From a virus (taxonomy: Duplodnaviria > Heunggongvirae > Uroviricota > Caudoviricetes), in the IMG/VR virus record IMGVR_UViG_3300017989_000052: DNA of 64,000 bases. One strand, given 5' to 3'. The position numbers and the translations under genes were made by a program. The notes beneath the pieces are model-generated. The model had not been told where the DNA came from. It saw only the letters and a program-made list of their open reading frames with translations, and did not search any database. The first letter of the stretch is position 1; every line of letters starts with the position of its first letter. Below, in pieces: positions 4,396-63,966 of this stretch.

Positions 4396-4884
4396 ATGAA
4401 AAACACCACAACGCTAGTCATCGTTGATGTTCAACCTGGATTTGAGACAGCAAAACATGCCGTTGCTGGAGTTTTACATCAAATTAAATTAGCAAAAAGA
4501 CGCAAAGCAGGTATTATCGTAGTTGAATATGATATCGGGGAATATGGGGCCTCGCTACCGGAAGTAAGAAAAGAAATAGGGTCTTATAGAAATGTTGTTT
4601 ATACTGAAAAATGTAATGATGATGGATCGATGGAGATTATAGATGCCGGAGAAACAGCACGGTTTAATTTAAGAAAAATTCGTTTTTGTGGGGTTAACGC
4701 TCTTTATTGTGTACATGACTCAATTTTTGGTTTTCTTAGAATGCAAAAAGAATCCAAGGTTGAAGTTGCTTTCGACGCATGTTTTTGTGATTCCGCCATA
4801 GGCAAAAAGAACTTTAGAAAAGTAAAAGAAATGTGGAAACGGATCTATGAACAAAACGAAGGAAACTTAAAAATCATAGACTAA
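4396..4884 (+). CDS. isochorismatase/cysteine hydrolase family protein (nicotinamidase-like fold)
   Basis: IVDVQPGF (Asp), YTEK (Lys), GVNALYCV (Cys) triad pattern; the His metal ligands typical of PncA are not evident. Confidence 0.75.
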   Translation: MKNTTTLVIVDVQPGFETAKHAVAGVLHQIKLAKRRKAGIIVVEYDIGEYGASLPEVRKEIGSYRNVVYTEKCNDDGSMEIIDAGETARFNLRKIRFCGVNALYCVHDSIFGFLRMQKESKVEVAFDACFCDSAIGKKNFRKVKEMWKRIYEQNEGNLKIID

Positions 4885-4938
4885 AACGGGCAAAATTAGA
4901 TGTGTTAAAAGGTGCCGAGAAGCATGAAAAGGAAACAA

Positions 4939-5538
4939 ATGAAACCCATTGTAATTGGCCTCTATGGTGGGGTAGGTGCCGGAAAAGACCTTGTCGCCAA
5001 TGAATTTCGTTACTTGGGGGCGGAAATTTTAGACGCGGATGCCGAAGTTACAAAATTATATACAAAAGCTTCTATCCGCAATGCCGTGGCGAAAAAATTC
5101 GGCGCTGATATTGTGGTAGGGAATAGGGTTGACCGAAAAGCTTTAGCAAAAATGATCTTCACAAATCCCACTGCGCGTCATGACCTTGAGGCCATTCTTC
5201 ATCCCCCAATTCATGAACGATTTCAGCAATATATTGCATCCGCTGATGCCCCAGAGGTAATCATATTAAATGTCCCTCTGTTGTTTGGTTCCCAGATGGA
5301 ATCGCTGGTAACTGTCGGGGTGTTTATTGACGCGAGCGAAGAAATTCGGGAAGAGCGAGTGATTAAATATCGTGGGTGGCAACCAGGGGAATTAGCTCGC
5401 CGGGACGCAGCACAACCAACACTTCCTGAAAAACGGAAACGATGCACACATATTGTTGATAATAATAAAACACAAGCAGAGGTTAAACACCAGGTACGAG
5501 GTATCTGGGAAAAATTATTCCAGAAGTCCGTAACTTAG
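4939..5538 (+). CDS. coaE: dephospho-CoA kinase
   Basis: GLYGGVGAGK P-loop, ILDAD, VDRKALAKMIF, LEAILHPPI, NVPLLF. Confidence 0.9.
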   Translation: MKPIVIGLYGGVGAGKDLVANEFRYLGAEILDADAEVTKLYTKASIRNAVAKKFGADIVVGNRVDRKALAKMIFTNPTARHDLEAILHPPIHERFQQYIASADAPEVIILNVPLLFGSQMESLVTVGVFIDASEEIREERVIKYRGWQPGELARRDAAQPTLPEKRKRCTHIVDNNKTQAEVKHQVRGIWEKLFQKSVT

Positions 5539-5559
5539 CAAAAGACTGCTTAGCCTAAG

Positions 5560-5901: not shown

Positions 5902-5902
5902 A

Positions 5903-6250: not shown

Positions 6251-6252
6251 TT

Positions 6253-6546: not shown

Positions 6547-6636
6547 GGTTACCAGAATCTTAAGATCCCGTTTATACTATTAAAGGGGAAATGAAACTTT
6601 AGAAGAAAATGTGTTTAACTGTACAAGGAGTAAAAA

Positions 6637-8538: not shown

Positions 8539-8539
8539 A

Positions 8540-9042: not shown

Positions 9043-10377
9043 GTGAACTACTCCCACGTAAACGTAGGAGCTTCTTTCCTAATTAATAACCGTTGGACTT
9101 ACCACCTTAGGTGGGTCCTTTGGTAATAGAAAAGCATGATTTTGGGCAGTCCCTGCCCTACGTAATAATTGTCCTTTTTTCTTAATAACTAAAGCTGCGT
9201 TAATGTCTCTATCATGATGAGTTTTGCAACTTAAACAAGTCCATTCCCTATCTTTGAGCTTCAAATCCTTATTCACCCAATCACAGGCATGACATGTTTT
9301 TGAAGTGTTTCTTGGGGGGACGAGAACTAGTTCTCGTCCATACCAGGAGGCTTTATATTCAATCATAGATTTCAGCATAGAAATAGCAGTGTTAGATGCA
9401 GCAAATGCTAGGTTTCTATTCTTAATCATAAATTGGACTGTTAAATCTTCTAGATAAATTGCTTGGTTTTCGTCAATTATCTTTTTTGAGATTTTATCTA
9501 ATTTATCTTTTCTAACATTTTTAACTTTTTCATGACATCTCGCAACTTTTAGTTTTTGTTTTTTATAGTTGTTTGATCCTCTCTTCTTCTTTGAAAGTTT
9601 TCTTTGATTTTTTCTCAATTTCTTATGATATTTATCTAAATTCTGATGCTTATCATGCTTCTCACCATTATCTTCAATCAAAGCATTTTTGATTCCAAAA
9701 TCTAGTCCGACTTCATTCTTAGTTCTTTTTAACTTCTTCTGCTTTTGATCATGAAAACAAAGAGAAGCAAAATATTTATTAGTTGAAGTCTTTTTGATAG
9801 TGCAAAAAGAAATCTTTCCATTAATTTCTCTATGCCTTTTGATTCTAATTCCTTCAAGGAATGCAGGCATTTTAAGGAGATTTTCTTCAATTTTGATTCC
9901 TTGAGGGATTCTAAAAGACTTTTCAGAGAAATTTCTCTTTTTGAATTTAGGAGGTCCTGCTTTTAATTTTGGACTGAAGAAGTTTTTATATGCTTGGTGA
10001 AGGTCTCTAAGAGCAGCTTGACAGGCTTGAGAATGAATGGTTTTCATCCATTCTAAGGACTTCCTTAATTGGGTTAAAGTTGCTTGGTCTTCCTTATAAA
10101 AAGAAAATTTCAATCCATTTTTATGATGCTCCTTTTTGAGGGCTAAAAAATGATTATAGATAAATCTACGAGCACCAAAAAACTGATCAAATTTCTTGAT
10201 TTGATCTTTTGATGGATAGATTCTAAACTTGTATAATTTAGTGATGGTTGATCTTTTAGACTTTCTAACCATGGTATAAAATTATACATGTTAGAGGATT
10301 ATAACGTAAGGCAAAATTGCTTTTTTGACACAATTCATCCTCGCGCGTGAACGCGGAGGACTTTTTGCGTAGGCACA
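9043..10377 (-). mobile_element. IS200/IS605-family tnpB-only insertion element
   Basis: Right-end hairpin reads gaagctcctacgtttacgtgggagtagTTCAC on the minus strand and ends at 9043; left-end hairpin cctcgcgcgtgaacgcggagg near 10339-10359; candidate TAM TTTAA (minus strand) at 10378-10382; no tnpA. The left boundary is inferred. Confidence 0.75.
9079..10272 (-). CDS. tnpB: RNA-guided endonuclease TnpB
   Basis: YKFRIYP HTH start, RuvC-I VGLDFG, RuvC-II IYLEDL, zinc finger CHAC/CLSC, RuvC-III DRDINAA. Confidence 0.93.
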   Translation of the reverse strand: MVRKSKRSTITKLYKFRIYPSKDQIKKFDQFFGARRFIYNHFLALKKEHHKNGLKFSFYKEDQATLTQLRKSLEWMKTIHSQACQAALRDLHQAYKNFFSPKLKAGPPKFKKRNFSEKSFRIPQGIKIEENLLKMPAFLEGIRIKRHREINGKISFCTIKKTSTNKYFASLCFHDQKQKKLKRTKNEVGLDFGIKNALIEDNGEKHDKHQNLDKYHKKLRKNQRKLSKKKRGSNNYKKQKLKVARCHEKVKNVRKDKLDKISKKIIDENQAIYLEDLTVQFMIKNRNLAFAASNTAISMLKSMIEYKASWYGRELVLVPPRNTSKTCHACDWVNKDLKLKDREWTCLSCKTHHDRDINAALVIKKKGQLLRRAGTAQNHAFLLPKDPPKVVSPTVIN

Positions 10378-10787: not shown

Positions 10788-10789
10788 GA

Positions 10790-18044: not shown

Positions 18045-18370
18045 TTGGGTTTGCTATTTCGGTTATCCTTTCTGGCCTTTTTCCACAATATATTCTGGTC
18101 ATTATCCCCCTTGTGTTTGGTTCAATGATTCTTTATCAAAAATCCCACGGCTGTACTTGCTTTTCTTGGAATGCCTCCCTACCTGACCGGCGGGATATCC
18201 CATGTCCTTATCATAGCCAGCTCTACGCAAAGGAAGAGGTTAAGAATGCAGCAAAATCAGGGAGGGGTGCCATTACTTCTCTCCTAACATCCAAGAATAA
18301 GTATTTCAGGTCTGCCGCAAGAGAGTTTCTTAAGAAACACCCCTTAACCAAAGGAAAAGACAATGAGTGA
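18020..18370 (+). CDS. membrane protein with CxC...CPYH motif and C-terminal tag
   Basis: TM helices, GCTC...CPYH, LLTSKNKYFRSAAR. Confidence 0.65.
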   Translation: MRTSISEIIGFAISVILSGLFPQYILVIIPLVFGSMILYQKSHGCTCFSWNASLPDRRDIPCPYHSQLYAKEEVKNAAKSGRGAITSLLTSKNKYFRSAAREFLKKHPLTKGKDNE

Positions 18371-19307
18371 AATTATCGTAATCGTTGGGTACCCCGCCGC
18401 CGGAAAATCCTCTCTCTGCAAGGAGTTTGAGGATCAGGGTTATATGCGGGTTAACCGTGATACCTTGGGCGGAACTCTAAAAGACCTTGCTGAATACGCA
18501 AAGAAGCTTATTAGCGAAGGGAAAAAGAAACTTGTTCTCGACAACACTTATGGCACGATTGAAAGCCGTAAGGTTGTAATTGAGCTTGGGAAAGAAACAA
18601 ACATCCCTGTTCGTTGTGTTTGGCTTGATACCAGTATTGAAGATTCCCAATTCAATGCCTGCATGAGGATGATGCAACGGTTTGGGAAGGTTCTAGCCCC
18701 AGACGAGATTAAGAAAAAGAAAGACCCTAACACTTTCCCGGCGGCAGTACAATTCAAGTATCGGAAGGCTTTTGAAAAACCAAAGAAAGAGGAAGGGTTT
18801 ACGTCTATAGAGAAAAGGAAGTTTGAGCGAGTCCTAGATCCGGAGTATTGTAACTCTGCTTTGATTCTTGACTACGATGGGTGTCTCAGAGAAACAAAAA
18901 GCGATAAAAAATACCCCACCAGCCCAGATGATATCCGAATTCTTCCGGGAAGGGGGGAGAAGCTTAAGAAGCTACTTAAAGATGATCCCTCGCTATTATT
19001 GTTGGGGGCTTCAAATCAAAGTGGAATCGCAAAGGGTGTTTTATCGGAAGAAGACGCCCGAGCTTGCTTCGATTTCACGAATAAGGAGCTCGGGGTTGAT
19101 ATCGAATATCGTTTCTGCCCCCATAAGGTCCCACCAATTTCTTGCTTCTGCCGGAAACCGATGCCTGGGATTGGCGTTTATTTTGTCGAAAAGTACAAAC
19201 TGAATCCTGAAAAGGTAACAATGGTTGGGGATATGAAATCAGATGAGACTTTCGCTAAACGGTGTGGGTTTAAGTTTATTCATTCTGACGATTTTTTCAA
19301 GGTATAA
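18363..19307 (+). CDS. polynucleotide kinase / 3'-phosphatase (PNKP-like, kinase-HAD)
   Basis: GYPAAGKS P-loop, RVNRD, VLDNT; HAD LDYDG, SNQSGI, CRKP, MVGD. Confidence 0.85.
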   Translation: MSEIIVIVGYPAAGKSSLCKEFEDQGYMRVNRDTLGGTLKDLAEYAKKLISEGKKKLVLDNTYGTIESRKVVIELGKETNIPVRCVWLDTSIEDSQFNACMRMMQRFGKVLAPDEIKKKKDPNTFPAAVQFKYRKAFEKPKKEEGFTSIEKRKFERVLDPEYCNSALILDYDGCLRETKSDKKYPTSPDDIRILPGRGEKLKKLLKDDPSLLLLGASNQSGIAKGVLSEEDARACFDFTNKELGVDIEYRFCPHKVPPISCFCRKPMPGIGVYFVEKYKLNPEKVTMVGDMKSDETFAKRCGFKFIHSDDFFKV

Positions 19308-19351: not shown

Positions 19352-20431
19352 ATGGACAGCAAGGAAATAAAACCAGGGTTCTACTGGTGTGAATGGAATC
19401 ATGGGCCTATCCAAAAAGTTGTAGGATACTACGTCGAAGATAGGTTATATTTCTCAGCGTGGGGAGGTCATCCGGGTGGCTGGTGGGCTGAGTATATCGC
19501 AAAACGAGCGAAACGGCTTATTCCAATCCCGGATAAACCGCCGAAGCAAGGGGTATCGGCGAAAGAGGACACAATGTCTCATACCCCTAAGTGGTTAGTT
19601 GTTTATTCGGGTAGTAAATTCGCACAGGATGCTGCTAATAAAATTTGTGGCTTGCTACAAAAACGCAGGATCGATTTTGAAAAATGTTCTGTTTTCGAAA
19701 TTTCAAAGAAAATACCGCTCGAAATTCAACAAACTTTCAACCTAGCTATTGTCTGTGGTGGAGACGGTACAATTCTTGGAACTCAACGGCAGCTTAAAGT
19801 CGAAAATCTCCCCCTAGTTGGAGTCAACCTGGGCCGATTGGGCTTTCTTGCTGAATTTGAATTTTCAAAATTCGAAGAAAAGATTGACCAGTTAGCCGAA
19901 AAATTCGAATTACGCAACCGGTTAAGGTTAAGAACAACTCTTTCTCGGAATAATAAAGTTATCTTCGAAGAAATTGCATTAAACGAAGCAGCGATAACCC
20001 AATCAGGGATTTCCCGTATGGTTGGGGTAAACGTTTTCATAAACAATCAATTTTGTGGAAATATTCAAGGAGATGGGTTATTGATCGCAACCCCATCTGG
20101 GTCTACTGCCTACTCCTTAGCAGCAGGAGGATCTCTAGCACACCCGGAATTAGAGACAATTCTATTAACGCCCATTTGTTCCCATTCCTTAACAGTACGT
20201 CCTATTATCTTGCCGCCGGATCGAAATATAAAAGTGAAACTGATGGATGACAGAAAAGCCGCAACCGTTGTTACGGTTGATGGGCAGGTTTCAGTCGAGA
20301 TGCAAGTGGGCGACGAGTTACTTGTTTCTAGAGCTCCAGATTTATTGACTGTTAAATCCACAACACATAACTTCTTCGATGCCTTGCAAACAAAACTAAA
20401 TTGGTCTGGGCATGCAAACCTCCCACAATAA
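19352..20431 (+). CDS. nadK: NAD kinase (core probably starts at ATG 19574; in-frame N-terminal extension)
   Basis: GGDGTIL, GVNLGRLGFL, ALNEA, GDGLLIATPSGSTAYSLAAGG. Confidence 0.93.
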   Translation: MDSKEIKPGFYWCEWNHGPIQKVVGYYVEDRLYFSAWGGHPGGWWAEYIAKRAKRLIPIPDKPPKQGVSAKEDTMSHTPKWLVVYSGSKFAQDAANKICGLLQKRRIDFEKCSVFEISKKIPLEIQQTFNLAIVCGGDGTILGTQRQLKVENLPLVGVNLGRLGFLAEFEFSKFEEKIDQLAEKFELRNRLRLRTTLSRNNKVIFEEIALNEAAITQSGISRMVGVNVFINNQFCGNIQGDGLLIATPSGSTAYSLAAGGSLAHPELETILLTPICSHSLTVRPIILPPDRNIKVKLMDDRKAATVVTVDGQVSVEMQVGDELLVSRAPDLLTVKSTTHNFFDALQTKLNWSGHANLPQ

Positions 20432-22433: not shown

Positions 22434-23144
22434 ATGGATAAAACATCACTAGGCGATCGAATGAAACGTTTCGAGGGGATTACTAATCCAGTTGTTGTCC
22501 CCCGAATGCCCATTATTTTGCGGGTTGATGGAAAAGCTTTCCACAACTGGGTAAAGAAAATTAATGCCGAAAAGCCCTTTGACCAGCGGCTACTTGACGC
22601 AATGGGCGATACAGCAATTGAGCTTTGCCAAGAGATTCAGGGGGCTGTTTTTGCTTATCAGCAATCCGACGAAATCTCAATCTTGATTCACCCTTACCAG
22701 AATCTTGAAAGCCAGCCGTGGTTTGGCGGTAAATTACAAAAGATGGTTTCAATCTCTGCCGCAACTGCGAGTTCCTTTATGTCCCTGCGGTTTGGCATTA
22801 AAACTATCTTCGATTCAAGGGTTTTTGTTCTCCCAGAAAATGAGGTTATTAACTATTTCATCTGGCGCCAACAGGATGCCTCCCGAAACTCTGTCCAGAT
22901 GGTGGCAAGAAGCAAGTTTTCACACAAGGCTTGCAACAATAAGTCCTGTAATGAGTTGCAAGAGATGCTTTGGCAAGAACATAACCTTAACTGGAACGAT
23001 CTGCCTCCCGTTCAGAAGCGTGGGCTTGGTATTCTCCGGAGAGACGGGAAATGGGATAAGGATTTTGATATCCCAATCTTTACTCAGGATAGGGATTACA
23101 TTAAAAACTTATTTTTCCAGAAAACTGAGGAAGTAAAAGAGTAA
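22434..23144 (+). CDS. tRNA(His) guanylyltransferase Thg1-like protein (3'-5' polymerase)
   Basis: LGDRMK, LRVDGKAFH, QSDEISIL, FDSRVF, YFIWRQQDASRNS. Confidence 0.93.
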   Translation: MDKTSLGDRMKRFEGITNPVVVPRMPIILRVDGKAFHNWVKKINAEKPFDQRLLDAMGDTAIELCQEIQGAVFAYQQSDEISILIHPYQNLESQPWFGGKLQKMVSISAATASSFMSLRFGIKTIFDSRVFVLPENEVINYFIWRQQDASRNSVQMVARSKFSHKACNNKSCNELQEMLWQEHNLNWNDLPPVQKRGLGILRRDGKWDKDFDIPIFTQDRDYIKNLFFQKTEEVKE

Positions 23145-23305: not shown

Positions 23306-23398
23306 GACTTCACATTAAAAATTCGTCTGGGATGGCAGCTACCACAATAGGATATCTTTCTAGTGGTAGGGGAAAATTGGGGTTTAATCGTGTATTTT

Positions 23399-23471
23399 GG
23401 GTCCATAGCTCAGCAGGCAGAGCAGCGGCCTTTTAAGCCGATGGTCGGGGGTTCGATTCCCTCTGGACCCA
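23399..23471 (+). tRNA. tRNA-Lys(UUU)
   Basis: Cloverleaf gggtcca/tggaccc, anticodon loop CT-TTT-AA, TTCGA T-loop. Confidence 0.93.
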
Positions 23472-23477
23472 TAGAAA

Positions 23478-23548
23478 GCGATGCTAGCATAATGGGAATG
23501 CACCGGATTGCCGGTCCGGGTATACGAGTTCGATTCTCGTGCGTCGCT
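23478..23548 (+). tRNA. tRNA-Gly(GCC)
   Basis: gcgatgc/gcgtcgc, ccgga-TTGCCGG-tccgg, U73. Confidence 0.88.
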
Positions 23549-23552
23549 TAAA

Positions 23553-23628
23553 AGTCCTGTGGGCAAGTTGGCAAAGCCGCCTGAATGAGGTTCAGGAGAT
23601 TTTGAGGGTTCGACCCCCTCCAGGACTA
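23553..23628 (+). tRNA. tRNA with GAG anticodon (Leu-type), short variable region
   Basis: agtcctg/caggact, cctga-ATGAGGT-tcagg, A73; variable region only 7 nt. Confidence 0.75.
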
Positions 23629-23671
23629 TGTGACGTTGTTCGGTTTCTCTACTTTTATGGAGAAGATTGAA

Positions 23672-23923
23672 ATGCGGAATATCAAGGTATTCAAGTTTAG
23701 CGAGTTGCCAAAGGCCTATGCGGCAACGGTTCTAGAAGATGCCCCATCAATGAATGCCGATGGAAGGTATTGGTTCAAGTTTGTAGGTAATGTGGTTGAG
23801 GATGCGGCAGTTGACCCAAAAGGATTTGACCCTGAATATGTTGAGATTTATCGGGAAGCAGATGTATTCTTCTATGAAAGTGGGTGCGAAAACGGGGAAT
23901 CAATCCTAATTGAACAAGATTAA
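23672..23923 (+). CDS. hypothetical protein
   Basis: In-frame ATG at 23672 with GGAG upstream, between tRNAs. Confidence 0.5.
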   Translation: MRNIKVFKFSELPKAYAATVLEDAPSMNADGRYWFKFVGNVVEDAAVDPKGFDPEYVEIYREADVFFYESGCENGESILIEQD

Positions 23924-23928
23924 CTGCT

Positions 23929-24001
23929 GGGAGTGTAGCTCAATTGGAAGAGCTCCAACCTCTTAAGTTGGATGTTTGGGGTTCAAGTCCCCACACTCCC
24001 A
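23929..24001 (+). tRNA. tRNA-Lys(CUU)
   Basis: gggagtg/cactccc, ccaac-CTCTTAA-gttgg. Confidence 0.93.
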
Positions 24002-24006
24002 TATAT

Positions 24007-24091
24007 GGTGGGTATGGCGGAATTGGTATACGCGCAAGACTGTGGATCTTGTGGGCAATAGCCCTTGTGGGTTCGAACCCCACTATCCACC
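24007..24091 (+). tRNA. tRNA-His(GUG) with G-1:C73 and a long variable arm
   Basis: g-gtgggta/tatccac-c, caaga-CTGTGGA-tcttg, variable arm gggc-aata-gccc, Leu-like D-arm. Confidence 0.88.
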
Positions 24092-24120
24092 CTTTCAGTT
24101 TTCTTAAAAAGGAAACCCTA

Positions 24121-26225: not shown

Positions 26226-26612
26226 ATGGATCTCTCGGGCATAAAAAGGTTAGAGCCCCTGCTAACTTCCCCTTGCTCATTTTTACGGGAGTTAGCAAAG
26301 GCTCTCAAGGCCCTAAAAGAAAAATTTGAAATTGCTCTTGATTTCCTTGAGCGGGGTTTGATTTCACCGGACTATGCATATCTTCGGTTAAAAATTATCC
26401 TTAAGCACAAAGAAAAAAAATATGAAACGCTTGTATATTTAGATACTATGACCCATTACTTAGGGAAGTCTAGCTGCTTTGCTATAGCCGATCCCCTATT
26501 AAAACATACATATGATTTTGTTTCTATTTCTTATATGAGGGCAACACTCAATTTTAGGCTTCGTAAATATGAAAAGTCCTTGGACCATAAAAAGCACAAA
26601 GTTAGTTTATAA
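26226..26612 (+). CDS. hypothetical protein with N-terminal tag
   Basis: LLTSPCSFLRELAK at residues ~12-25. Confidence 0.6.
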   Translation: MDLSGIKRLEPLLTSPCSFLRELAKALKALKEKFEIALDFLERGLISPDYAYLRLKIILKHKEKKYETLVYLDTMTHYLGKSSCFAIADPLLKHTYDFVSISYMRATLNFRLRKYEKSLDHKKHKVSL

Positions 26613-27108
26613 CAACCCTTGGATCTCCGTGCGGGAGGACCAGGTTATAACCCCCTCGGGAACGGATGGGATTTATGGGGTTGTGCATCTTAAAGGCTAT
26701 GCTCTAGGAATCGTTGCTTTAGATGCGGAACAGAATATTTATTTAGTTGGCCAATACAGGTACCCCTTAGAAAAATATTCTTGGGAACTCCCCGAAGGAG
26801 GAGGCGACCTAAAGGCTCCTCCCCTCGAGTCAGCAAAACGCGAATTAAGAGAAGAGACGGGACTAATAGCAAAGGAATGGGAATACCTTTGCAAGTATCA
26901 CCCCTCTAACTCAATCACGGATGAGGTAGGTTTCCTCTATTTAGCTACCGACTTAGTTCAAGGTGAAATGGATTTAGATGAAACCGAGGATATTAAGGTA
27001 AAGAAATTACCTTTTGTGGAGGCTTTAAGAATGGTAGAGAGAGAAGAAATTACGGATCTCATTAGTATTACAGGCATCTACGCCGTTGCTCGCAAATTGG
27101 GAGTTTAG
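26569..27108 (+). CDS. Nudix hydrolase (ADP-ribose pyrophosphatase NudF-like)
   Basis: QYRYPL, Nudix box ELPEGG...ESAKRELREETG. Confidence 0.88.
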   Translation: MKSPWTIKSTKLVYNNPWISVREDQVITPSGTDGIYGVVHLKGYALGIVALDAEQNIYLVGQYRYPLEKYSWELPEGGGDLKAPPLESAKRELREETGLIAKEWEYLCKYHPSNSITDEVGFLYLATDLVQGEMDLDETEDIKVKKLPFVEALRMVEREEITDLISITGIYAVARKLGV

Positions 27109-29796: not shown

Positions 29797-30157
29797 TCAA
29801 ACCGGGCCTTTCGAGGCTACGGGGGAAGAGTATAGCTTCAACTTTCTTCCAACGAAGAAAGAAATTGTTGCCTGCTGCCTCTACCTCTTAATCGATGAGT
29901 GGCAAGGTGTTAGGTATGACCATAAGTTAGGGGTTTGCCCCGAAGAAATCAAGAATATAAAATTTCAAGTATACGACGAATGGTGTAGTATTATTCACCT
30001 ATCTTTTAAGAATCCACATAAAAGCCTTCCCAGAATAATGAAATGTGAAATAACTAGAGTTAGTCAAACCCCTGCTTGTTTAGAGCAATATCTAACCTCG
30101 CCCAGCTTGGGGCTGGCGATAAAACAATGGATGAAAGAGGAACTAGATGCTTCCTGA
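29777..30157 (+). CDS. hypothetical protein with degenerate C-terminal tag
   Basis: EQYLTSPSLGLAIKQW; in-frame ATG at 29777. Confidence 0.55.
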   Translation: MFILKINQTGPFEATGEEYSFNFLPTKKEIVACCLYLLIDEWQGVRYDHKLGVCPEEIKNIKFQVYDEWCSIIHLSFKNPHKSLPRIMKCEITRVSQTPACLEQYLTSPSLGLAIKQWMKEELDAS

Positions 30158-32083: not shown

Positions 32084-32557
32084 ATGGAAAAACATTATAC
32101 TTTAATCGCAGACACGTCTCAGGCAGGCTTTTGGGGCACCTCTCCAACTTATAAATGCCAAATTAAAAGGAAACCTCGCTTTACCGATTTGAAATTGTTT
32201 GGCTATCTTATAGCCAAAGACCTGGTAGCTAGATTTATCCTGGGCTCAATATCATATCCGAGGGTTGCTAAAGTCCAAGGGGATGTAAATAGCGGCTGGT
32301 TTGACGAATGTTATTCGTTTTTTGATTTTGATCGTTTTTTCGAGGATTGCCTAGCATGTGGAAGTACGCTAGTAATTGAAATTTCTGGCTTCAGAATCCC
32401 TATAAAAACTGAAATTGAATTTATTCTAAAATCCTTTAACATTTCTCAAGACCTTACCCACAAGAACGCCAATATTCGCAAAACTGCAAAAGAAATCCAA
32501 AAGGATGTTACGGAAGCGTCGTTTTACTTTACCCCTTTCCCAGAGACAACGCCATGA
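32084..32557 (+). CDS. hypothetical protein with tag near C-terminus
   Basis: DLTHKNANIRKTAK. Confidence 0.6.
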   Translation: MEKHYTLIADTSQAGFWGTSPTYKCQIKRKPRFTDLKLFGYLIAKDLVARFILGSISYPRVAKVQGDVNSGWFDECYSFFDFDRFFEDCLACGSTLVIEISGFRIPIKTEIEFILKSFNISQDLTHKNANIRKTAKEIQKDVTEASFYFTPFPETTP

Positions 32558-39688: not shown

Positions 39689-41008
39689 ATGGCAACTGTC
39701 CTAAAACACCGTAGGTTCGTAAAAGTCGACACGAAGAGAAATAATAACAAGTATTGGTACATCACGCTTTATGATGATGGTACGGTCAAAACAGAATATG
39801 GCCGGGTGGGTTATAACGGACAAGTTTCTTCTGATGGCCCTTTTTCCCAGCCGGCAGCCGAGAGAAAATTCGAAAGCAAAATTAAATCAAAGTTAAGGGG
39901 GAAAAAGGACGGGGAAAAGGCATATACTGAAATCGATGTTTTAGAGGCGACTTCGGATACACCCAAAACGGCCAGCAAAGCAGTAGACCAAAAGAACTTA
40001 CGGCAACTGGCAGCAGAACAGATTGGGTCGGGGGATAAGGAAGTCACAAAGCTTGTGAGTTATCTCGTCAAGCAAAATATCCACACGATTGTGGAGAATA
40101 CGACAATTCAGTATAATGCTCAAACGGGCAACTTTTCAACGGCGTGTGGGACTGTTACTCTCGACACGATTGACGATGCTCGTAAGTTTTTGGAAAAGCT
40201 TGCGAAGCACGTTTCGAACAAAAGGTTTAAGGGTAAAATCGTTGAACGGAATTTAGAAAGCTATCTCACCTTAATCCCACAACACCTCGGAATGAAGGCA
40301 CCGGCGCTTGATCGGCTTTGCCCTGATCTCGATGCTGTGAAAAAGCAAAACCAACTATTGGATTCACTGGAAGCGGGTATTAGCGTTTTCAAACAATCCG
40401 CAACTCAGGATGAAGATAAAAAAGAAGACGATACACCAAAGGTTTGGGATGTGTCCCTCGCCCGAGTTGACGCTAAGAAAGAATTAGATCGCATCCGGCG
40501 GCTTTACCGGAAAACTGCTAAGTCCATGCACACCTCTTCTAGTTTGGATGTTAAGCGGGTATTTACTGTGCGGATTAAGCAAATGGCAGATGCCTTTGAA
40601 AAGAAAGGGAAAGCGATTGGAAATATTATGCAACTCTGGCATGGCACCCGGGTTGCCAATATTCTCTCAATCCTCGCAAAAGGCTTAATCATCCCACCCG
40701 CCCGATCTTCTCACTGCACAGGGAGGATGTTTGGGAATGGAGTTTATTTCTCGGACCAGTCAACAAAAGCGTTAAACTACTCTCACGGGTATTGGGGTGG
40801 GTTCAAGGACAACAATTGTTTTATGTTCCTTGCTGATGTCGCAATGGGTAAGACGTATACCCCACGTTCTTGGAGCGAACCTTTCCCGAAGGCTGGGCAC
40901 GACTCAACCTTTGCAAAGGCAAGCGTGAGTGGCGTGATGAACAATGAGATGATCGTCTACAAGCTTGCCCAATGTAACCTAGTTTACTTGGTTGAGTTTG
41001 GTAGCTAG
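39689..41008 (+). CDS. WGR-domain poly/mono(ADP-ribose) polymerase (PARP-like)
   Basis: N-terminal WGR-like KYWYITL...EYGRVG; catalytic LWHGT, GRMFGNGVYFSD, NNEMIVY (H-Y-E triad). Confidence 0.92.
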   Translation: MATVLKHRRFVKVDTKRNNNKYWYITLYDDGTVKTEYGRVGYNGQVSSDGPFSQPAAERKFESKIKSKLRGKKDGEKAYTEIDVLEATSDTPKTASKAVDQKNLRQLAAEQIGSGDKEVTKLVSYLVKQNIHTIVENTTIQYNAQTGNFSTACGTVTLDTIDDARKFLEKLAKHVSNKRFKGKIVERNLESYLTLIPQHLGMKAPALDRLCPDLDAVKKQNQLLDSLEAGISVFKQSATQDEDKKEDDTPKVWDVSLARVDAKKELDRIRRLYRKTAKSMHTSSSLDVKRVFTVRIKQMADAFEKKGKAIGNIMQLWHGTRVANILSILAKGLIIPPARSSHCTGRMFGNGVYFSDQSTKALNYSHGYWGGFKDNNCFMFLADVAMGKTYTPRSWSEPFPKAGHDSTFAKASVSGVMNNEMIVYKLAQCNLVYLVEFGS

Positions 41009-52392: not shown

Positions 52393-52849
52393 AGGGGAAC
52401 AAGTTGAAATCGAAGATCCCCAAAAAGGGAACTTGAGTAGATTCCTAACATCTCAAAACCCAAAGGTACGAAACCATGTTGCTGCGATGCTTGGGTTAAA
52501 GATCTCAGGTATCGTGTATAAACAATTAGAATTTTATGTTGAGGAGATTCACGATCTTGAAAAGAAAAAGAAAAGAACTAGAACTTCCTTTAGAATAACT
52601 TTAATTAAGGAGGAGATTAAACTAAAAATTCTATTTACCGAAACCGGGGCGGAGACAGAAGTTTTTTTCTACTACCTTTTTGCTAAGGAATCGTTACCTT
52701 ATATTGAACAAGCTAGTTCTCTGAAACTGCTTCTCCCAAAAATTAAAAGCATTTTCGATAAAGAAATCGATATTGCTGCCCTCAAACAAAAGATTACCAA
52801 AAGGCTTCTAAAAGAGGTGAACAATGCTAGGACGTCAAGACAGGCTTAA
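52376..52849 (+). CDS. hypothetical protein with N-terminal tag
   Basis: FLTSQNPKVRNHVA. Confidence 0.6.
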   Translation: MKRITRGEQVEIEDPQKGNLSRFLTSQNPKVRNHVAAMLGLKISGIVYKQLEFYVEEIHDLEKKKKRTRTSFRITLIKEEIKLKILFTETGAETEVFFYYLFAKESLPYIEQASSLKLLLPKIKSIFDKEIDIAALKQKITKRLLKEVNNARTSRQA

Positions 52850-54302
52850 CCGACTCAATAAGATTGTAGAATCCGGGGATACCCCATATAAAGATCAGTT
52901 CACAAGAACCCACAGCCTAGAAGAGGCAGGCACGTTAGAGGATGGATTGGAAAACGTAGCTCTGGCAGGCCGAGTTATCCTTAAGAGAAATCAAGGGAAG
53001 CTCTTGTTTGGGCAGATTCAAGATTTCTATGGCCGCATTCAATTTTCAATTAAGGCCAACACTCTTAGTAAAGAAGTTATTAAGGCTTTTGATAAGACTA
53101 TTGATCTTGGGGATATTGTCGGCATTAGGGGAACGATGTGGACTACCCAGAGAGGCCAAAAGACTCTTGATGTCCACGACTATTCTCTTTTAACAAAGGC
53201 TATTAACCCTCAGCCTGAAAAGTGGCATGGCGTCCAAGACCAAGAACTTGCCTACCGTAAGCGGTATCTTGATCTTAGTGCTGCGGGTAATGATGAAAGC
53301 CGAAAACGTTTTAAGGTGGCTCTCGCTATCCCAAAGATAATCAGGGATAATCTAGAGCAGGCAGGGTTTATTGAAACGCCGACGCCAATCCTTGTCCCCA
53401 TAGCAAGTGGCGCCGCAGCCAACCCATTTCAAACCCACCACGATAAACTGGATATTCCCCTATATTTACGAATCGCGCCGGAAACATATTTGAAAAGACT
53501 TTTGATTGCCGGCTTTCCAAAGGTTTATGAACTTGGGCGTTGCTTTAGAAATGAAGGAATGTCTACCGAGCATCTCCAAGAATTTCAAATGGTAGAAGTT
53601 TATGATGCGTATTCAAACTATAAGGACACAATGAGGTATGTAGAAAACCTTGTTAAAAATATAGTACTTAATGTTTGTAACTCTTATAAATTTACCTTCC
53701 GTGGGAAAGATTATAACTTGGAGGGTAAGTTTGAAGAGGTCGATTACGTTTCTGCGGTAGAAGAGGCTACTGGGATTAATGTTTTAGAATATGATAGCTT
53801 CCAAGAGCTTTGGGGAGCCATTTCCGAGAAGAAGGGGGAAAGTTTTGCTACGGAACTACATCCCCCAGAACATATTGTGGGACTGGGGACTTTAATTGAC
53901 CTCTTATATAAGAAAACTGTTCGGCCTAACATCATGGGCCCTGCTTTTCTTATTGGTCACCCTGCTGCTGTTTCTCCCCTAGCAAGACAGAATGGCACTA
54001 ATCCTAAAATTGCTGATCGCTACCAATTAATTATTGGTGGGATTGAAGTTATAAATGGTTATTCAGAGCTCGCAGACCCACAGGAACAAGCAGCAAAGTT
54101 TGAAGAACAAGCAAAAGTTTCCGCTACTGATAACGAAGCGATAAGCGCCGAAGATTCTTTTGTGGAAGCTTTGACCTATGGTATGCCTCCCGCTAGTGGC
54201 TGGGGGATGGGCATTGAACGCCTAGCGATGATTCTAACAGACGCTCCCAGTATTCGGGATGTGGTTTTGTTCCCTACAATGAAGCCGGAAGAAAAGGGTT
54301 AG
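52824..54302 (+). CDS. lysS: lysyl-tRNA synthetase (class II)
   Basis: OB-fold GRVILKRNQGKL, motif 1 FIETPTPIL, YLRIAPETYLKRL, motif 2 FRNEG..EHLQEF, motif 3 YGMPPASGWGMGIERL. Confidence 0.96.
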   Translation: MLGRQDRLNRLNKIVESGDTPYKDQFTRTHSLEEAGTLEDGLENVALAGRVILKRNQGKLLFGQIQDFYGRIQFSIKANTLSKEVIKAFDKTIDLGDIVGIRGTMWTTQRGQKTLDVHDYSLLTKAINPQPEKWHGVQDQELAYRKRYLDLSAAGNDESRKRFKVALAIPKIIRDNLEQAGFIETPTPILVPIASGAAANPFQTHHDKLDIPLYLRIAPETYLKRLLIAGFPKVYELGRCFRNEGMSTEHLQEFQMVEVYDAYSNYKDTMRYVENLVKNIVLNVCNSYKFTFRGKDYNLEGKFEEVDYVSAVEEATGINVLEYDSFQELWGAISEKKGESFATELHPPEHIVGLGTLIDLLYKKTVRPNIMGPAFLIGHPAAVSPLARQNGTNPKIADRYQLIIGGIEVINGYSELADPQEQAAKFEEQAKVSATDNEAISAEDSFVEALTYGMPPASGWGMGIERLAMILTDAPSIRDVVLFPTMKPEEKG

Positions 54303-58143: not shown

Positions 58144-58534
58144 CTTTTATTTAGTCCCTTTAACCCACAAAGGACCAAATTCAAAGTATTTCCCAGAAAC
58201 AAGGGTTTTGCATCCTGCCATTAGGGTAGACGACGCAATCTACGATCTTATTACTTTTAATTGGGGAAACCACGGTACGTCCGTAATTTCAGATGGGCTT
58301 CGTAAACTTCCCTCAAGGGAACCAGCTGATAGTCCGCTTTGGGATAGATATAAAGTTCCACCTTCTGTTTTTTTAACGAGTATTAGCCAATTTGCAAGAC
58401 ACCTAGCAAAGTCTTATTTAGCAGGAGATATTGACTGGGTTAGGATAGCAATTGAAATTGCTTATAGGGAACTAGGTAGGGAAATGGAATACTTTTTTCA
58501 AAAACTTCATGATAAAGGGGGATGCCTTCCATGA
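58130..58534 (+). CDS. hypothetical protein with tag near C-terminus
   Basis: FLTSISQFARHLAK. Confidence 0.6.
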   Translation: MKTVDFYLVPLTHKGPNSKYFPETRVLHPAIRVDDAIYDLITFNWGNHGTSVISDGLRKLPSREPADSPLWDRYKVPPSVFLTSISQFARHLAKSYLAGDIDWVRIAIEIAYRELGREMEYFFQKLHDKGGCLP

Positions 58535-59049
58535 TAAAGAAAAATTTACCGGTCTTAGCGTATCTAATTTTAGCAGCAACTGCGAACATTGTAACAACCA
58601 GAGGGTTTGAGCTTATCGGTCCCTACATCATGCCTATTGTGGCATTTATTTTCATTGGGGTTGATATAACTTTGCGGGATAAAATTCACGAACGGTGGGC
58701 CCGCAAAGGTCTCTGGTGGAAGATGGGATTTTTAATTTGTGGCGGTTCCTTGCTTTCTTGGGTCACCTACCCAGAAGCAGGTCAGGTAGCCTTAGCATCG
58801 GCCTTGGCATTTTGTGGTGCTGGAATTGTGGATACTTTTATCTACCATATAGTAAGAAAGAAATCCAGAAGAGCTGCAATTCATACAAGTAATGTTGGTT
58901 CTGCAGCAATTGATTCACTTATCTTTCCCTTTGTTGCCTTTGGAATTTTAGCCCTTCCGATTATTGCGATGCAATTCGCGGCGAAGGTAGCAGGGGGCTC
59001 AATCTTTGAAGTTGTTTGGCATAGGGTAACTAAGGATTCTTCAAAATGA
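58531..59049 (+). CDS. VUT-family (YhhQ-like, queuosine precursor) transporter
   Basis: ANIV, FIGVDITLRDKIHE, ALASALAF..AGIVDTFIY, SNVGSAAIDSLIF. Confidence 0.75.
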   Translation: MIKKNLPVLAYLILAATANIVTTRGFELIGPYIMPIVAFIFIGVDITLRDKIHERWARKGLWWKMGFLICGGSLLSWVTYPEAGQVALASALAFCGAGIVDTFIYHIVRKKSRRAAIHTSNVGSAAIDSLIFPFVAFGILALPIIAMQFAAKVAGGSIFEVVWHRVTKDSSK

Positions 59050-60390: not shown

Positions 60391-60918
60391 ATGACTTTCA
60401 TGCCAAATTGTAGAGCCGCCGTTGCCGTACTAATACTACGGCCCTTAGACCAAACAACGGCGACTAATCAATACCTAGCAATCCGCAACGCTAAGCGGGA
60501 TGTTTGGGAATGCCCTGGAGGAAAAATCGAACCGGGGGAAACCCCAACCCAAGCCGCAATCCGAGAAGTAGCAGAAGAAACGAACTTGCGGCTGAATCCT
60601 CAGAAATTACGACTTGAGAGAGTCTACGCCAACCCAACCGAGGATGGACAAACTTTTATAATGTTCTTTTTTCACTATAACATAGGGGAAGAGCTGCATC
60701 AATTAGATTATCTCAAATTAAGCGAGGAACACACTGACTTCTCTTGGAAGAAGTTAACAGACTTGCTAAATCTTAGCCCCGAGGATGCCGCACCCCGGTT
60801 TTTAGACTATATCCGAAGCCACTTTTACGTAAACCGTTCAACCCCGGATATCGATGTGACTCAAAAATCTTGGTATCCGGGCGAAGCCCCAACCGCCGGT
60901 TTTTCGAAAGGGAGCTAA
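60391..60918 (+). CDS. Nudix hydrolase
   Basis: WECPGGKIEPGETPTQAAIREVAEETNL; AAGGAG RBS before ATG 60391. Confidence 0.9.
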   Translation: MTFMPNCRAAVAVLILRPLDQTTATNQYLAIRNAKRDVWECPGGKIEPGETPTQAAIREVAEETNLRLNPQKLRLERVYANPTEDGQTFIMFFFHYNIGEELHQLDYLKLSEEHTDFSWKKLTDLLNLSPEDAAPRFLDYIRSHFYVNRSTPDIDVTQKSWYPGEAPTAGFSKGS

Positions 60919-60920
60919 AA

Positions 60921-62072
60921 ATGATCACAAGCCTCCTCGACAACGATCTCTACAAATACACGATGCAACAAGCGGTGCTTGAACGCTACTACGGCGTTGA
61001 AGTTGAATACCGCTTCACAAATCGGGGGAAACAAAGATTCTCTCCAGAATTCCTTGAGATGTTGAAACAAGCGATCAAGGACATGGAGAAAATTAAACTC
61101 ACCCCGCAAGAGTACGTCTGGTTGCGGGACAATGTTGCGTTCATCAAACCCCAGTATCTTGAGTACCTAAGAAGTTATCGCTTTAATGCCAACGAAGTGT
61201 CTCTTTCCCTTACGGAAGAGAATGATCTTGAGTTGACAATCAAGGGCCCGTGGCATTCAACAATTCTCTGGGAAGTTCCACTGCTTGCCTTAATTAGCGA
61301 ATGCTACTTTAAGACCGTCGACACTTCTTGGGACGCGGAAGGCCAAACAGATAAAGCAAGAAACAAAGCTAAGCGTCTTAAAGACGCAGGATGCCTTTTC
61401 GCAGATTTCGGGACGCGGAGACGTCGCTCCAGGTGGAACCACGCAATTGTCTTGAAGGGACTTAATTCAACCGACGCTTTTGTTGGGACAAGCAACGTCC
61501 TCTTTGCTAAAAAATTGGGCTGTAAGCCAATTGGGACGATGGCACATGAGTTTTGCCAGGCAATGGCTGTGCTAGAAAGCCTAAACCACCCCAATAAGCA
61601 TATGATGAAGAAATGGTACTCTGTCTATAACGGACGGCTAGGAATTGCCTTGACAGATACCTATGGGCTCGAAGCCTTCTTGGGAGACTTTAACCTAAAA
61701 CTTGCTAAGCTCTTTGATGGGGTTCGGCACGACTCGGGATGCCCATTCAAGTTCACAGATCAAATCATTGCCCATTACGAGAGGCTGGGTATTGACCCTA
61801 AATCAAAAACAATTGTTTTTAGCGACGGCCTAAACGTGGACAAAGCCATTGAATTGAATGATTATTGTAAAGGAAGGATCAAATGCTCTTTCGGAATTGG
61901 TACTTTCTTCACCAACGATTTTGAAGAGAGCAAAGCATTAAATATTGTCATTAAACTTTATAAAGCCAATGGAAAGCCCGTTGTAAAATTAAGCGATGAC
62001 CCAGGAAAGGCCATTGGCGAACCTGACGCCGTGCGCGTAATGAAGTGGCTTTTCTTTGGAGAAGCACTTTAA
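60921..62072 (+). CDS. pncB: nicotinate phosphoribosyltransferase
   Basis: SLLDNDLYKYTMQQ, ILWEVPLLA, DFGTRRR, GTSN, GTMAHE, LTDT, GVRHDSG, FSDGL, FGIGT, KLSD. Confidence 0.95.
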   Translation: MITSLLDNDLYKYTMQQAVLERYYGVEVEYRFTNRGKQRFSPEFLEMLKQAIKDMEKIKLTPQEYVWLRDNVAFIKPQYLEYLRSYRFNANEVSLSLTEENDLELTIKGPWHSTILWEVPLLALISECYFKTVDTSWDAEGQTDKARNKAKRLKDAGCLFADFGTRRRRSRWNHAIVLKGLNSTDAFVGTSNVLFAKKLGCKPIGTMAHEFCQAMAVLESLNHPNKHMMKKWYSVYNGRLGIALTDTYGLEAFLGDFNLKLAKLFDGVRHDSGCPFKFTDQIIAHYERLGIDPKSKTIVFSDGLNVDKAIELNDYCKGRIKCSFGIGTFFTNDFEESKALNIVIKLYKANGKPVVKLSDDPGKAIGEPDAVRVMKWLFFGEAL

Positions 62073-62175
62073 CCGGAAAGAAGAAAAATGAATCTTGGTA
62101 TTAAAGATATCAGAAAAGCCGATTAAGAAACGATACAGTCTGCTTCCTGGATTAGGCCCTAGCAGGAGAAAAACA

Positions 62176-63966
62176 ATGAAAGTTAAGCTTGGCGAAATCA
62201 ATACTACCCCTAACGACTTTGATGGGAACCGCGACAGTATTCTCACAGTCTTAGAAGAGGCGAAAAAAGAAAATGCAGACCTTACAGTTTTCCCCGAGCT
62301 TGCAATTTGTGGGTACCTTTCAAAGGACCTACTTTACCAAAAAGGGTTCATCCAGAGGAATCTAGAGGCACTGCGTCATATCCAAAATTGGAGTGCTGAA
62401 AACCACGGCATGGCTATTGTTGTTGGCTATGCTAGTTGGAATAACGGGGGAAAAGGCAAGCCCTTTGCTAACATGGCGGCAGTTGTCCGAGATGGAATGA
62501 TTATTGGCACCTATCAAAAACACCTTTTACCGTTCTACGATGTTTTCGATGAAGGGAGATATTTTGAACCTGGGACCAATCTTTGTGTTGTAAATATCGC
62601 CGGGAAAAAATGTGGCATTACGATTTGCGAAGATGTATGGAACGACAAGGGTGCTGATGATTATTCTTACGAGGATAACCCCGTGGGAAGGTACCGCAAA
62701 GTTGGGGTTGAGGTGCTTATTAATATTAGCAGCTCTCCTTTCGCCCAAAGAAAATCGCGGAAAAGGTTTGGGGTGCTGTCTAAAATTCCAACATTAGAGC
62801 CAATTACTGCTCTAATTTATGTTAATCAGCTTGGCGGGCAAGATGAGCTTGTATTTGATGGAAAAAGCTGTATTATAACCCGGAATAGTTCTTTCGTCAC
62901 AGAGGCGCCAGGCCGAAAAGTTGGTGGGGGGATCGAGAGTCAAAAAATTGCCCCAGCGCGGGCCTTAGAAAATATCAGCGGATGGCCGCTAAACGACTTT
63001 GACCGGCCGTACGAAGATATTTATAAAGCAATTATCCTAGGCTTGTCCGATTATGTAAAGAAATCAGGATTTAAGAAAGTTGTTCTTGGGAGTTCTGGGG
63101 GAGTTGATTCCGCCTTAGTTGCTGCTCTGGCAGCCCATGCGGTAGGACCCAAAAACGTTCATTGTATTATGATGCCGGGGCCACACTCAAGCGAAGGGTC
63201 AGTTAAGGACGCACAAAAGTTGCACCGAAATTTAGGATGTGTTGAGCATACGGTTCCAATTCGGGCGGAAGAGGAATTGGGGCATATCAACCAACAGATC
63301 AAACTAAAAAGCCCATATGACCCTATTGCGGATGAAAATATTCAGGCACGACTTCGGGGTCTTACCGTGATGCATTTCTCCAATGCCTATGGTGCTTTGC
63401 CTCTCTCCACCGGAAATAAAACGGAACTTGCAGTTGGGTATTGCACTCTGTATGGTGATATGAACGGGGGTTTTAACCCAATCGGGGACCTCTATAAGCT
63501 TCAGGTCTATCAAGTTGCAGACTTTATCAACGAATATTACAACGCTGGAAAGTATACCCCAGTTATTCCAAAGGAAATCCTACAGAAAGCACCAAGTGCT
63601 GAACTTGCGCCCGACCAAACAGACGAGAAAAGCCTACTCCCCTACGAAATTCTTGATTTTATCGCAATGGCTTATCTTGAATATTATATCGACGATTTCC
63701 AGGAATTCTTCAACTGGGTTGTGTTTGGAACGCTCCAAGAAAAGTATCCTGTCCTGGCTTCTTGGGAAAACCCATTCGTTAAAGTTCGTCTCTGGGTGGA
63801 CGAAAAGGGATCCGAAGAAGAATTCTATAAGATCATTCGGCGTATCGATGCAGTAGAGTTTAAACGGCGCCAGGCAGCGCCCTGTATTAAACTAAGCAAA
63901 GTTTCTTTCGGAACGGGTCGGCGCCTCCCAATCGTCCAAAAGCTCCGTGACATCCCTCACGCGTAG
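62176..63966 (+). CDS. nadE: glutamine-dependent NAD+ synthetase
   Basis: Nitrilase domain FPEL, KHLLP.YDVFDE.RYF, ICEDVW; synthetase GSSGGVDSA, ENIQARLRG, TGNKTE, YCTLYGD, KAPSAEL..QTDE. Confidence 0.95.
   Translation: MKVKLGEINTTPNDFDGNRDSILTVLEEAKKENADLTVFPELAICGYLSKDLLYQKGFIQRNLEALRHIQNWSAENHGMAIVVGYASWNNGGKGKPFANMAAVVRDGMIIGTYQKHLLPFYDVFDEGRYFEPGTNLCVVNIAGKKCGITICEDVWNDKGADDYSYEDNPVGRYRKVGVEVLINISSSPFAQRKSRKRFGVLSKIPTLEPITALIYVNQLGGQDELVFDGKSCIITRNSSFVTEAPGRKVGGGIESQKIAPARALENISGWPLNDFDRPYEDIYKAIILGLSDYVKKSGFKKVVLGSSGGVDSALVAALAAHAVGPKNVHCIMMPGPHSSEGSVKDAQKLHRNLGCVEHTVPIRAEEELGHINQQIKLKSPYDPIADENIQARLRGLTVMHFSNAYGALPLSTGNKTELAVGYCTLYGDMNGGFNPIGDLYKLQVYQVADFINEYYNAGKYTPVIPKEILQKAPSAELAPDQTDEKSLLPYEILDFIAMAYLEYYIDDFQEFFNWVVFGTLQEKYPVLASWENPFVKVRLWVDEKGSEEEFYKIIRRIDAVEFKRRQAAPCIKLSKVSFGTGRRLPIVQKLRDIPHA

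Follow-up and report, generated by a model that had tools for sequence, protein, structure and literature searches.

Why should a virus carry genes for making nicotinamide adenine dinucleotide (NAD+), and is the set that it carries sufficient for the task? The question is raised by a stretch of 64,000 nucleotides from the IMG/VR virus record IMGVR_UViG_3300017989_000052 (Caudoviricetes), hereafter the window, near the end of which genes for a Nudix hydrolase, a nicotinate phosphoribosyltransferase (PncB) and a glutamine-dependent NAD+ synthetase (NadE) lie side by side. Depletion of NAD+ is a common anti-phage strategy, in which defences such as Thoeris ThsA, DSR, SIR2-HerA and SEFIR split NAD+ into ADP-ribose (ADPR) plus nicotinamide, and three phage routes that rebuild the cofactor have been demonstrated experimentally, none of them passing through the nicotinate branch. 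An initial annotation of the window proposed that its phage runs such a branch, from nicotinamide through nicotinate, nicotinate mononucleotide (NaMN) and nicotinate adenine dinucleotide (NaAD) to NAD+ and NADP+, with a Nudix enzyme recycling ADPR, and presented it as a novel pathway. We find good support for a complete predicted route from nicotinate to NAD+, and give a probability of roughly 55% to the reading that the cluster is a cofactor-supply module for a NAD+-consuming phage and may, in a second role, buffer against depletion.

A predicted complete route from nicotinate to NAD+

The window ends 34 nt after the NadE gene, and the cluster had to be followed beyond it. Searching by NadE identity, we found the cluster DNA again in a metagenome contig of 335,479 bp in ENA (ERZ27256770, k141_416325) and in contigs of four further samples. 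Base 1 of the window is base 146,817 of the 335,479-bp contig, and the window end maps to L001:11626-11825, L001 being a stretch of the same contig. The portion read runs from base 146,817 to base 267,009 (about 120 kb, comprising the window and the next 56 kb, with 215 kb of the contig outside it), and all statements below on the contig refer to this portion.

Followed in this way, the cluster is a co-directional block of five genes in the order Nudix-PncB-NadE-CoaD-NadD, with gaps of 2, 103, 20 and -10 nt (NadD overlaps CoaD by 10 nt). The adjacency and common orientation of the first three had been described correctly, and their open reading frames (ORFs), families and catalytic motifs are confirmed. 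PncB (60921-62072, +) contains the domains PF17767 (NAPRTase_N) and PF04095 (NAPRTase), scores 463 bits against a cut-off of 269.55 on TIGR01514, and has its best solved match in Pseudomonas aeruginosa PncB2 (1yir, 285.6 bits); both the GTMAHE loop with the autophosphorylated His (residue 205) and the GVRHDSG loop are intact. NadE (62176-63966, +) joins a CN_hydrolase to a NAD_synthase domain, reaches 528 bits on NF010588 (cut-off 479) and 328 bits against the structure 5kha, and keeps the Glu, Lys and Cys of the nitrilase site (FPEL, KHLLP, ICED) as well as the SGGVDS PP-loop.

The ORF that had been noticed near 63987, at the window edge, is real and encodes CoaD, a phosphopantetheine adenylyltransferase of 170 residues (L001:11812-12324, +; TIGR01510 146.9 bits against a cut-off of 103.3). 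It is followed, 490-1110 nt past the window end (L001:12315-12935), by a gene for a protein of 206 residues that is likely a NadD-type NaMN adenylyltransferase. The TIGR00482 model is covered end to end, at 109.4 bits against a cut-off of 112.45; the 18 matches among solved structures are all NadD-type adenylyltransferases, except for one uncharacterised protein; and the motifs GGAFNPVTLGH and SSTQVR are present. The models for NadM (TIGR01527) and NadR (TIGR01526) are not among its listed matches, and the enzyme appears NadD-like rather than NadM- or NadR-like.

Because NadD sits just two genes past the window edge, a complete Preiss-Handler route from nicotinate to NAD+ (PncB, NadD, NadE) is predicted with good support. 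PncB would condense nicotinate with phosphoribosyl pyrophosphate (PRPP) to NaMN, NadD would use ATP to turn NaMN into NaAD, and NadE would convert NaAD, ATP and glutamine into NAD+. The route would be extended to NADP+ by a putative NAD kinase, NadK (19352-20431, +), which has the Pfam domains NAD_kinase and NAD_kinase_C and the motifs GGDG and TPSGSTAY. Its N-terminal extension of about 80-120 residues is without a family match, the NCBIfam NAD kinase models aligning only from residue 80-125 or so onwards. The section from nicotinate to NADP+ of the pathway originally proposed is thus encoded, and the step before it, from nicotinamide to nicotinate, is without a convincing enzyme. The annotation had also placed NadD or NadM and PRPP synthetase outside the window, and had suggested a search beyond it for nadD, nadM, nadR and prs: both enzymes are indeed absent from the window, NadD turned up next to it, and the 120 kb read yielded neither NadR nor a PRPP synthetase, the only other phosphoribosyltransferase there being HGPRT-like. 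The latter is a protein of 166 residues (L013:13441-13941, -) that scores 148.9 bits on TIGR01203 against a cut-off of 150.

The block may serve a second cofactor as well. A dephospho-CoA kinase, CoaE (4912-5538, +; Pfam CoaE 124 bits, TIGR00152 116 bits against a cut-off of 65.55), which would catalyse the last step of coenzyme A (CoA) synthesis, is encoded at the other end of the window, and together CoaD and CoaE would supply the last two steps of that pathway.

The first gene of the block (60391-60918, +) encodes a Nudix hydrolase (Pfam NUDIX, E 2e-17) with a canonical Nudix box at residue 44. Its best matches among PDB structures and PHROG families are generic MutT/Nudix proteins and no NCBIfam model lies above its cut-off; it appears to be MutT-like and generic, without an assigned substrate. 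The intact catalytic box and the absence of a winged-helix or other DNA-binding domain argue for an enzyme, and a role as an NrtR-type regulator is unsupported. A role as CoA pyrophosphatase is likewise unsupported, the protein being without the NuCoA motif.

NAD+ consumers and ADP-ribose handling

A use for the NAD+ is suggested by other genes of the same genome. A PARP-like ADP-ribosyltransferase (39689-41008, +; Pfam PARP 108.6 bits, with WGR and PARP_reg domains), in whose sequence a catalytic context of His (HGT), Tyr and Glu (NNEMIVY) can be read, would consume NAD+ and release nicotinamide, and an NAD-dependent DNA ligase, LigA, is encoded on the contig 9.5 kb downstream of NadD. These phage-encoded consumers provide a reason for the pathway that is independent of host defence. 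Under the reading that we favour, the block would uphold the NAD(P)+ and CoA pools of the infected cell, most likely to feed the PARP and the NAD-dependent ligase; an ADP-ribosylglycohydrolase, a NADAR protein and an ADPR pyrophosphatase would clear the ADP-ribose products; and any buffering against depletion of NAD+ by the host would come as a side effect or as a secondary function.

The ADP-ribosylglycohydrolase (30147-31004, +; PF03747, 112 bits), an enzyme type that frees ADP-ribose from modified targets, lies in the window, and the NADAR protein (L012:9560-10000) is encoded on the same contig, 26 kb past the window. With the PARP they amount to a writer and eraser set for ADP-ribosylation on one phage genome.

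The candidate for the ADPR pyrophosphatase, which would yield AMP and ribose-5-phosphate, is not the Nudix protein beside PncB. The initial annotation had assigned the recycling of ADPR to a Nudix enzyme, and this holds, by homology, for the distant one, whereas the PncB-adjacent one is MutT-like. The distant gene (26569-27108, +) encodes NDPSase_N and NUDIX domains of the ADP-ribose/ADP-sugar pyrophosphatase type, and over residues 9-173 its product matches the Mycobacterium tuberculosis ADPRase 1mk1 (E 7e-20) and NudF (about 1e-19) at full length. The Nudix box is partly canonical, with RELREETGL present and an unconserved first Glu in the Gx5E part, and the protein stays below the cut-off of every equivalog model (63 bits for NudE). 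For these two reasons we take ADPR as a probable substrate only by inference.

The presence of LigA opens another possibility, in which the nicotinamide mononucleotide (NMN) released by the ligase is turned into NaMN by a putative PncC-type deamidase and then into NAD+ by NadD and NadE, with PncB as a side entry. NadD-type enzymes generally prefer NaMN, which would make NadE a requirement and could explain the retention of a deamidated route in place of an amidated one; the location of LigA on the same contig, 9.5 kb from NadD, is in its favour. It leaves the tight linkage of PncB, NadE and NadD unexplained, however, and the two ATP-dependent DNA ligases that are also encoded in the window make a reliance on LigA doubtful. 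We regard such recycling as improbable.

A stronger competitor is a pathway dedicated to counter-defence, a fourth route of NAD+ reconstitution that would act after cleavage by Thoeris, DSR or SIR2-HerA. Nicotinamide would be deamidated by the PncA of the host or by the isochorismatase-fold protein discussed below, PncB, NadD and NadE would rebuild NAD+, and the ADPRase-type Nudix would return ADPR to ribose-5-phosphate and thence, through the Prs of the host, to PRPP. The three core enzymes, intact and clustered, and the ADPRase-type Nudix are what such a pathway would need. Also in its favour is the company of another probable anti-defence gene: a protein of the metallo-beta-lactamase fold (window 32554-33396) scores 100.6 bits (cut-off 50) on PF23023, the model of the anti-Pycsar Apyc1 family, and is likely a counter-defence enzyme that degrades cyclic nucleotides. 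Against this reading, the phage PARP and LigA explain a need for NAD+ without any host defence, and neither a nicotinamidase nor a PRPP synthetase was seen in the window or the next 56 kb. For each NAD+ made, the pathway would moreover use one PRPP, one glutamine and as many as three ATP, and it takes more steps than any of the three demonstrated routes. On balance we consider dedicated counter-defence a tentative possibility, well behind cofactor supply.

Several observations weigh against the supply module that we prefer. The NadD score falls 3 bits under the NCBIfam cut-off, and the best NCBIfam score of NadK, 213.7 bits, lies under all cut-offs of its models. A scan for promoters and terminators over the cluster gave counts at the level of chance (14 against 13.4 and 10 against 9.4), which is no evidence either way on co-transcription. 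No capsid or terminase genes were seen within the 120 kb read. The enzyme activities and their expression are predictions, and the Apyc1-like gene lends plausibility to a counter-defence setting as well. The two roles, provision for the phage itself and counter-defence, could coexist, and the sequence by itself does not rank them firmly.

The source of nicotinate

Where the nicotinate would come from depends on the first step. No clear nicotinamidase is encoded in the part of the contig read, so the phage probably relies on the PncA of the host, on imported nicotinate, or on a non-canonical hydrolase, for which the isochorismatase-fold protein at 4396-4884 (+) would be the candidate. This gene, NadK and the second Nudix gene, which had all been listed as lying elsewhere in the window, are real. 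The protein itself has no direct match in Pfam or NCBIfam, the nicotinamidase model included. An exhaustive phmmer search gave more than 1000 relatives (clusters at E <= 0.001), each of about 150 residues, and in an alignment of 147 sequences Q13, K72, G77, G99 and C105 are invariant and D11 nearly so, while 122 of the 147 match PF00857. Compared with the PDB, the family profile finds isochorismatase-family structures (best E 2e-13) and Pyrococcus PncA (5e-11). An AlphaFold model built on the alignment (pLDDT 93.9, replacing a single-sequence model of pLDDT 54) resembles MAR1/ISOC, YcaC and PncA at TM values of about 0.7, the MAR1/ISOC and YcaC types being the top matches. The isochorismatase fold and the Asp-Lys-Cys triad (D11/K72/C105) of this small cysteine hydrolase are real, and the family also conserves the motifs DDGS and CGVN..CV.

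Nicotinamidases are defined by a metal site that holds the pyridine nitrogen, in PncA an Asp/His/His arrangement (DxH...H). No His occurs in the corresponding segment of the 4396 protein or of its family consensus, which bears out, and extends to the whole family, the earlier remark that the metal-binding His residues are missing. With neither the metal site nor an NCBIfam nicotinamidase match, the protein is not accepted as a PncA nicotinamidase. The family is mostly viral, viruses making up 84-88% of its clusters in the ESM Atlas, and a tblastn search of INPHARED phages with the protein gave no match. Loci were scanned with an alignment of 13 sequences, the larger one being too diverse; the two IMG/VR loci found have an EamA transporter, an M50 peptidase, a deoxynucleoside kinase and UDG as neighbours, and no link to NAD. 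The absent metal site, the 56 kb between gene and cluster, and relatives without NAD-linked neighbours all count against the reading of a dedicated counter-defence pathway.

A related viral contig offers a different picture. IMG/VR 3300023210_003613 (a 19-kb fragment, G002 in our collection, also read as L007 and L018) resembles the window phage in carrying within about 13 kb a PncB (55% identical), a Nudix gene beside it, a glutamine-dependent NadE and a NadD (124 bits against the cut-off of 112.45). Unlike the window phage, it encodes a bona fide nicotinamidase, with 242.8 bits on NF008623 (cut-off 174), a model on which the 4396 protein gives no match, 189 bits to the structure 2wt9 and a DWHPxNH motif, and its PncB-adjacent Nudix is ADPRase-like where that of the window is MutT-like. 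By its genes, G002 holds the full deamidated set from nicotinamide to NAD+, a version not shown for the window phage. Scattered between these genes are others for homing endonucleases of the GIY-YIG and group I intron types. Two other IMG/VR contigs vary the theme: in G001, PncB, a PncA-like protein and an NH3-dependent NadE stand side by side, and the 340-kb G004 has PncB, NadD, a NadE-like protein and LigA, with no isochorismatase and no Prs.

That related viral clusters combine a nicotinamidase with PncB, NadE and an ADPRase-like Nudix is a point in favour of counter-defence, as it ties the phage pathway to nicotinamide, the product of NADases, and not to free nicotinate. The locus and its relatives therefore form a natural comparison, one related viral contig having a real nicotinamidase and the window phage apparently none. 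The boldest form of the idea, in which the block would be a fourth, deamidated route of reconstitution against NADase defences, working with the ADPRase Nudix and with either host PncA or the 4396 protein as a metal-independent nicotinamidase, seems to us unlikely. If it were true, a virus-enriched isochorismatase family of 150 residues would be a previously unrecognised first enzyme, and jumbo phages would have a means of escape from Thoeris, DSR and SIR2-HerA.

Comparison with known phage and bacterial pathways

Bacterial pncA-pncB-nadE operons such as P. aeruginosa PA4918-4920 resemble the window cluster in that pncB adjoins nadE, with a Nudix-family gene alongside. In P. aeruginosa the operon is under the control of an ADPR-sensing, Nudix-like regulator, NrtR, and it is the operon that jumbo phage PA5oct induces (PMC7318152). 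The window cluster differs in having no pncA, in including NadD and CoaD, and in the nature of its Nudix protein, an enzyme by its predicted features and not an NrtR-type regulator.

Among phage pathways, NARP1 consists of Adps and Namat and proceeds via ADPR pyrophosphate (ADPR-PP), and NARP2 consists of Nampt and Nmnat, exemplified by NadV and NatV of vibriophage KVP40; PncB, NadD and NadE are not mentioned in the preprint describing them (Osterman et al., 'Phages reconstitute NAD+ to counter bacterial immunity'). NARP3, formed by PnuC and NadR, takes up and phosphorylates nicotinamide riboside (PMC13464706). The window route resembles NARP2 in using a pyridine base and PRPP, in the succession of a PF04095-superfamily phosphoribosyltransferase and a nucleotidyltransferase, and in the associated Nudix/ADPRase activity; it differs in its base, nicotinate, in its deamidated intermediates and in a third enzyme, NadE, and it would need a nicotinamidase step to use the product of an NADase. 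With NARP1 and NARP3 it has in common the end product and a location on phage genomes, and the chemistry differs. In the contig portion read we found no Adps (PRPS-like, Pribosyltran_N) and no Namat, the sole PF04095 protein being the NAPRTase equivalog; no Nampt or NadV, the phosphoribosyltransferase being of the nicotinate type and the adenylyltransferase NadD-like; and no PnuC or NadR in the Pfam and NCBIfam results for the scanned genes, a set that leaves aside some small ORFs of the window. The predicted route is different from all three, and the distinction from NARP1 and NARP2 that had been drawn at the outset stands, carried by the NAPRTase equivalog, the NadD-like adenylyltransferase and NadE. 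That these three systems show phages rebuilding NAD+ against such defences lends some support to a counter-defence role here.

The claim of novelty did not survive the literature. Li et al. (Microbiome 2024; PMC11662467) counted, among 668 gut jumbo phages, 174 with all enzymes of a salvage or Preiss-Handler pathway together with NAD-consuming enzymes; pncB, nadD and nadE are clustered in their phage Kuafu_71, and PARP and NAD-dependent ligase occur in such phages as well. Their proposal, put forward without a test, is that the pathway counters NAD+ depletion of the Sir2 type (PMC11662467), a further point in favour of a counter-defence role, on which the literature that we searched held no paper testing the nicotinate route against a defence system. 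Both the kind of cluster and the counter-defence idea are therefore already described (PMC11662467), and the window does not represent a new kind of system. With 335,479 bp and the genes for PncB, NadD and NadE, the genome belongs with the NAD-jumbo phages, defined by a size above 200 kb and every enzyme of one salvage or Preiss-Handler pathway, and has in common with them the clustering of pncB, nadD and nadE, the PARP and the NAD-dependent ligase (PMC11662467). Unlike those of the gut, it comes from sediment and seawater, has an additional Nudix gene in the cluster and CoaD between NadE and NadD, and also encodes NadK, CoaE, an ADP-ribosylglycohydrolase, NADAR and an ADPRase-type Nudix. What our analysis adds is the presence of NadD and CoaD past the window edge, the distant Nudix as the ADPRase candidate, and the placement of the 4396 protein in a virus-enriched family of small isochorismatase-fold proteins.

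A demand for NAD+ may be general in jumbo-phage infection. Phage PA5oct strongly induces the pncA-pncB1-nadE operon of its host (PMC7318152), and in the account of Li et al. it is itself without NAD pathway genes (PMC11662467). This induction points to a need of the infected cell for the cofactor, which agrees with the supply reading.

Identity of the genome and origin of the cluster

We attribute the window to a jumbo phage (>200 kb), an identification that rests on architecture and relatives, the 120 kb read having shown neither capsid nor terminase genes. The architecture is a dense, one-directional array of mostly orphan ORFs, with 11 tRNAs and a set of RNA-repair genes; the closest PncB and NadE matches are in viral contigs and huge phages, and the 4396 family is enriched in viruses. 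A bacterial host is favoured by the bacterial-type NadD, CoaD, CoaE and LigA and by the genes for sigma-70 factors, ClpS and DksA-like proteins.

The cluster might instead be host DNA, brought in by a chimeric assembly, by a contaminating cellular fragment or by a recent, non-functional capture of an operon. Its enzymes are of ordinary bacterial housekeeping families, its GC content is slightly higher (0.442 at 60-64 kb, against about 0.38-0.43 over most of the window), and structural phage genes are missing from the portion read. Yet contigs from five samples, four of them contigs of 0.2-1 Mb, repeat both the gene order and the orphan-rich flanks to either side of it, and the stretch is present in four DNA runs from three studies, with no RNA run listed; the sources are sediment and seawater metagenomes. 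The catalytic motifs are all intact, and the cluster lies within the one-directional run of small orphan genes, tRNAs and genes for RNA repair. Apart from one metagenomic relative of 85% (P0157), the closest PncB relatives are 57-60% identical, which argues against a recent capture from a sequenced host, and the nearest cellular PncB loci are without synteny. An origin in host DNA is, on this evidence, very improbable.

The relatives of the block are themselves largely viral. PncB relatives in four IMG/VR contigs are 53-57% identical, and INPHARED homologues of PncB and NadE belong to metagenomic huge phages (LR7565xx) and to the cultured jumbo phages Atu_ph07 and Phosso, while a megablast search with the cluster against the 50,697 phage records found no close DNA match. 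A 60-mer taken from the end of the window had no exact occurrence in IMG/VR. By tblastn, the 735-kb huge phage LR756501.1 has, at about 428.8-431.4 kb, a PncB-like gene (43% identity over the full length) and, less than 1 kb from it, a gene resembling NAD synthase; nadD is all that Li et al. credit this phage with (PMC11662467). The nearest named cellular homologues of PncB, at 50-54% identity, are in Methanosarcinaceae (Methanosarcina, Methanohalophilus) and an Asgard metagenome-assembled genome, in a scan (loci L030-L086) that is biased by its exact peptide words and is to be read as a lead and not as a phylogeny. Capture of the operon from a Methanosarcinaceae lineage is rejected, as these cellular PncB loci have no Nudix, NadE or NadD in synteny.

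Other genes

Metabolite salvage is also suggested by a homologue of Vut_1, a YhhQ-type transporter of queuosine precursors, at window 58522-59049. Among the very few minus-strand genes of the window is an OrfB/TnpB of the IS605 type (9079-10272, -), with HTH_OrfB_IS605, OrfB_IS605 and Cas12f1-like TNB domains. RNA ligases, 2H phosphoesterases, sigma-70 factors and a CCA-adding enzyme are encoded downstream on the contig. The genome as a whole carries a kit for RNA repair and translation that comprises a PNK-like kinase/phosphatase, Thg1, the 11 tRNAs, an Asn/Asp-tRNA synthetase, two types of RNA ligase, 2H phosphoesterases and the CCA-adding enzyme, located at 18363-19307, 22434-23144, 23398-24092 and 52824-54302 in the window and at L001:13446-14699, L013:10221-11450 and L013:14000-15430 beyond it.

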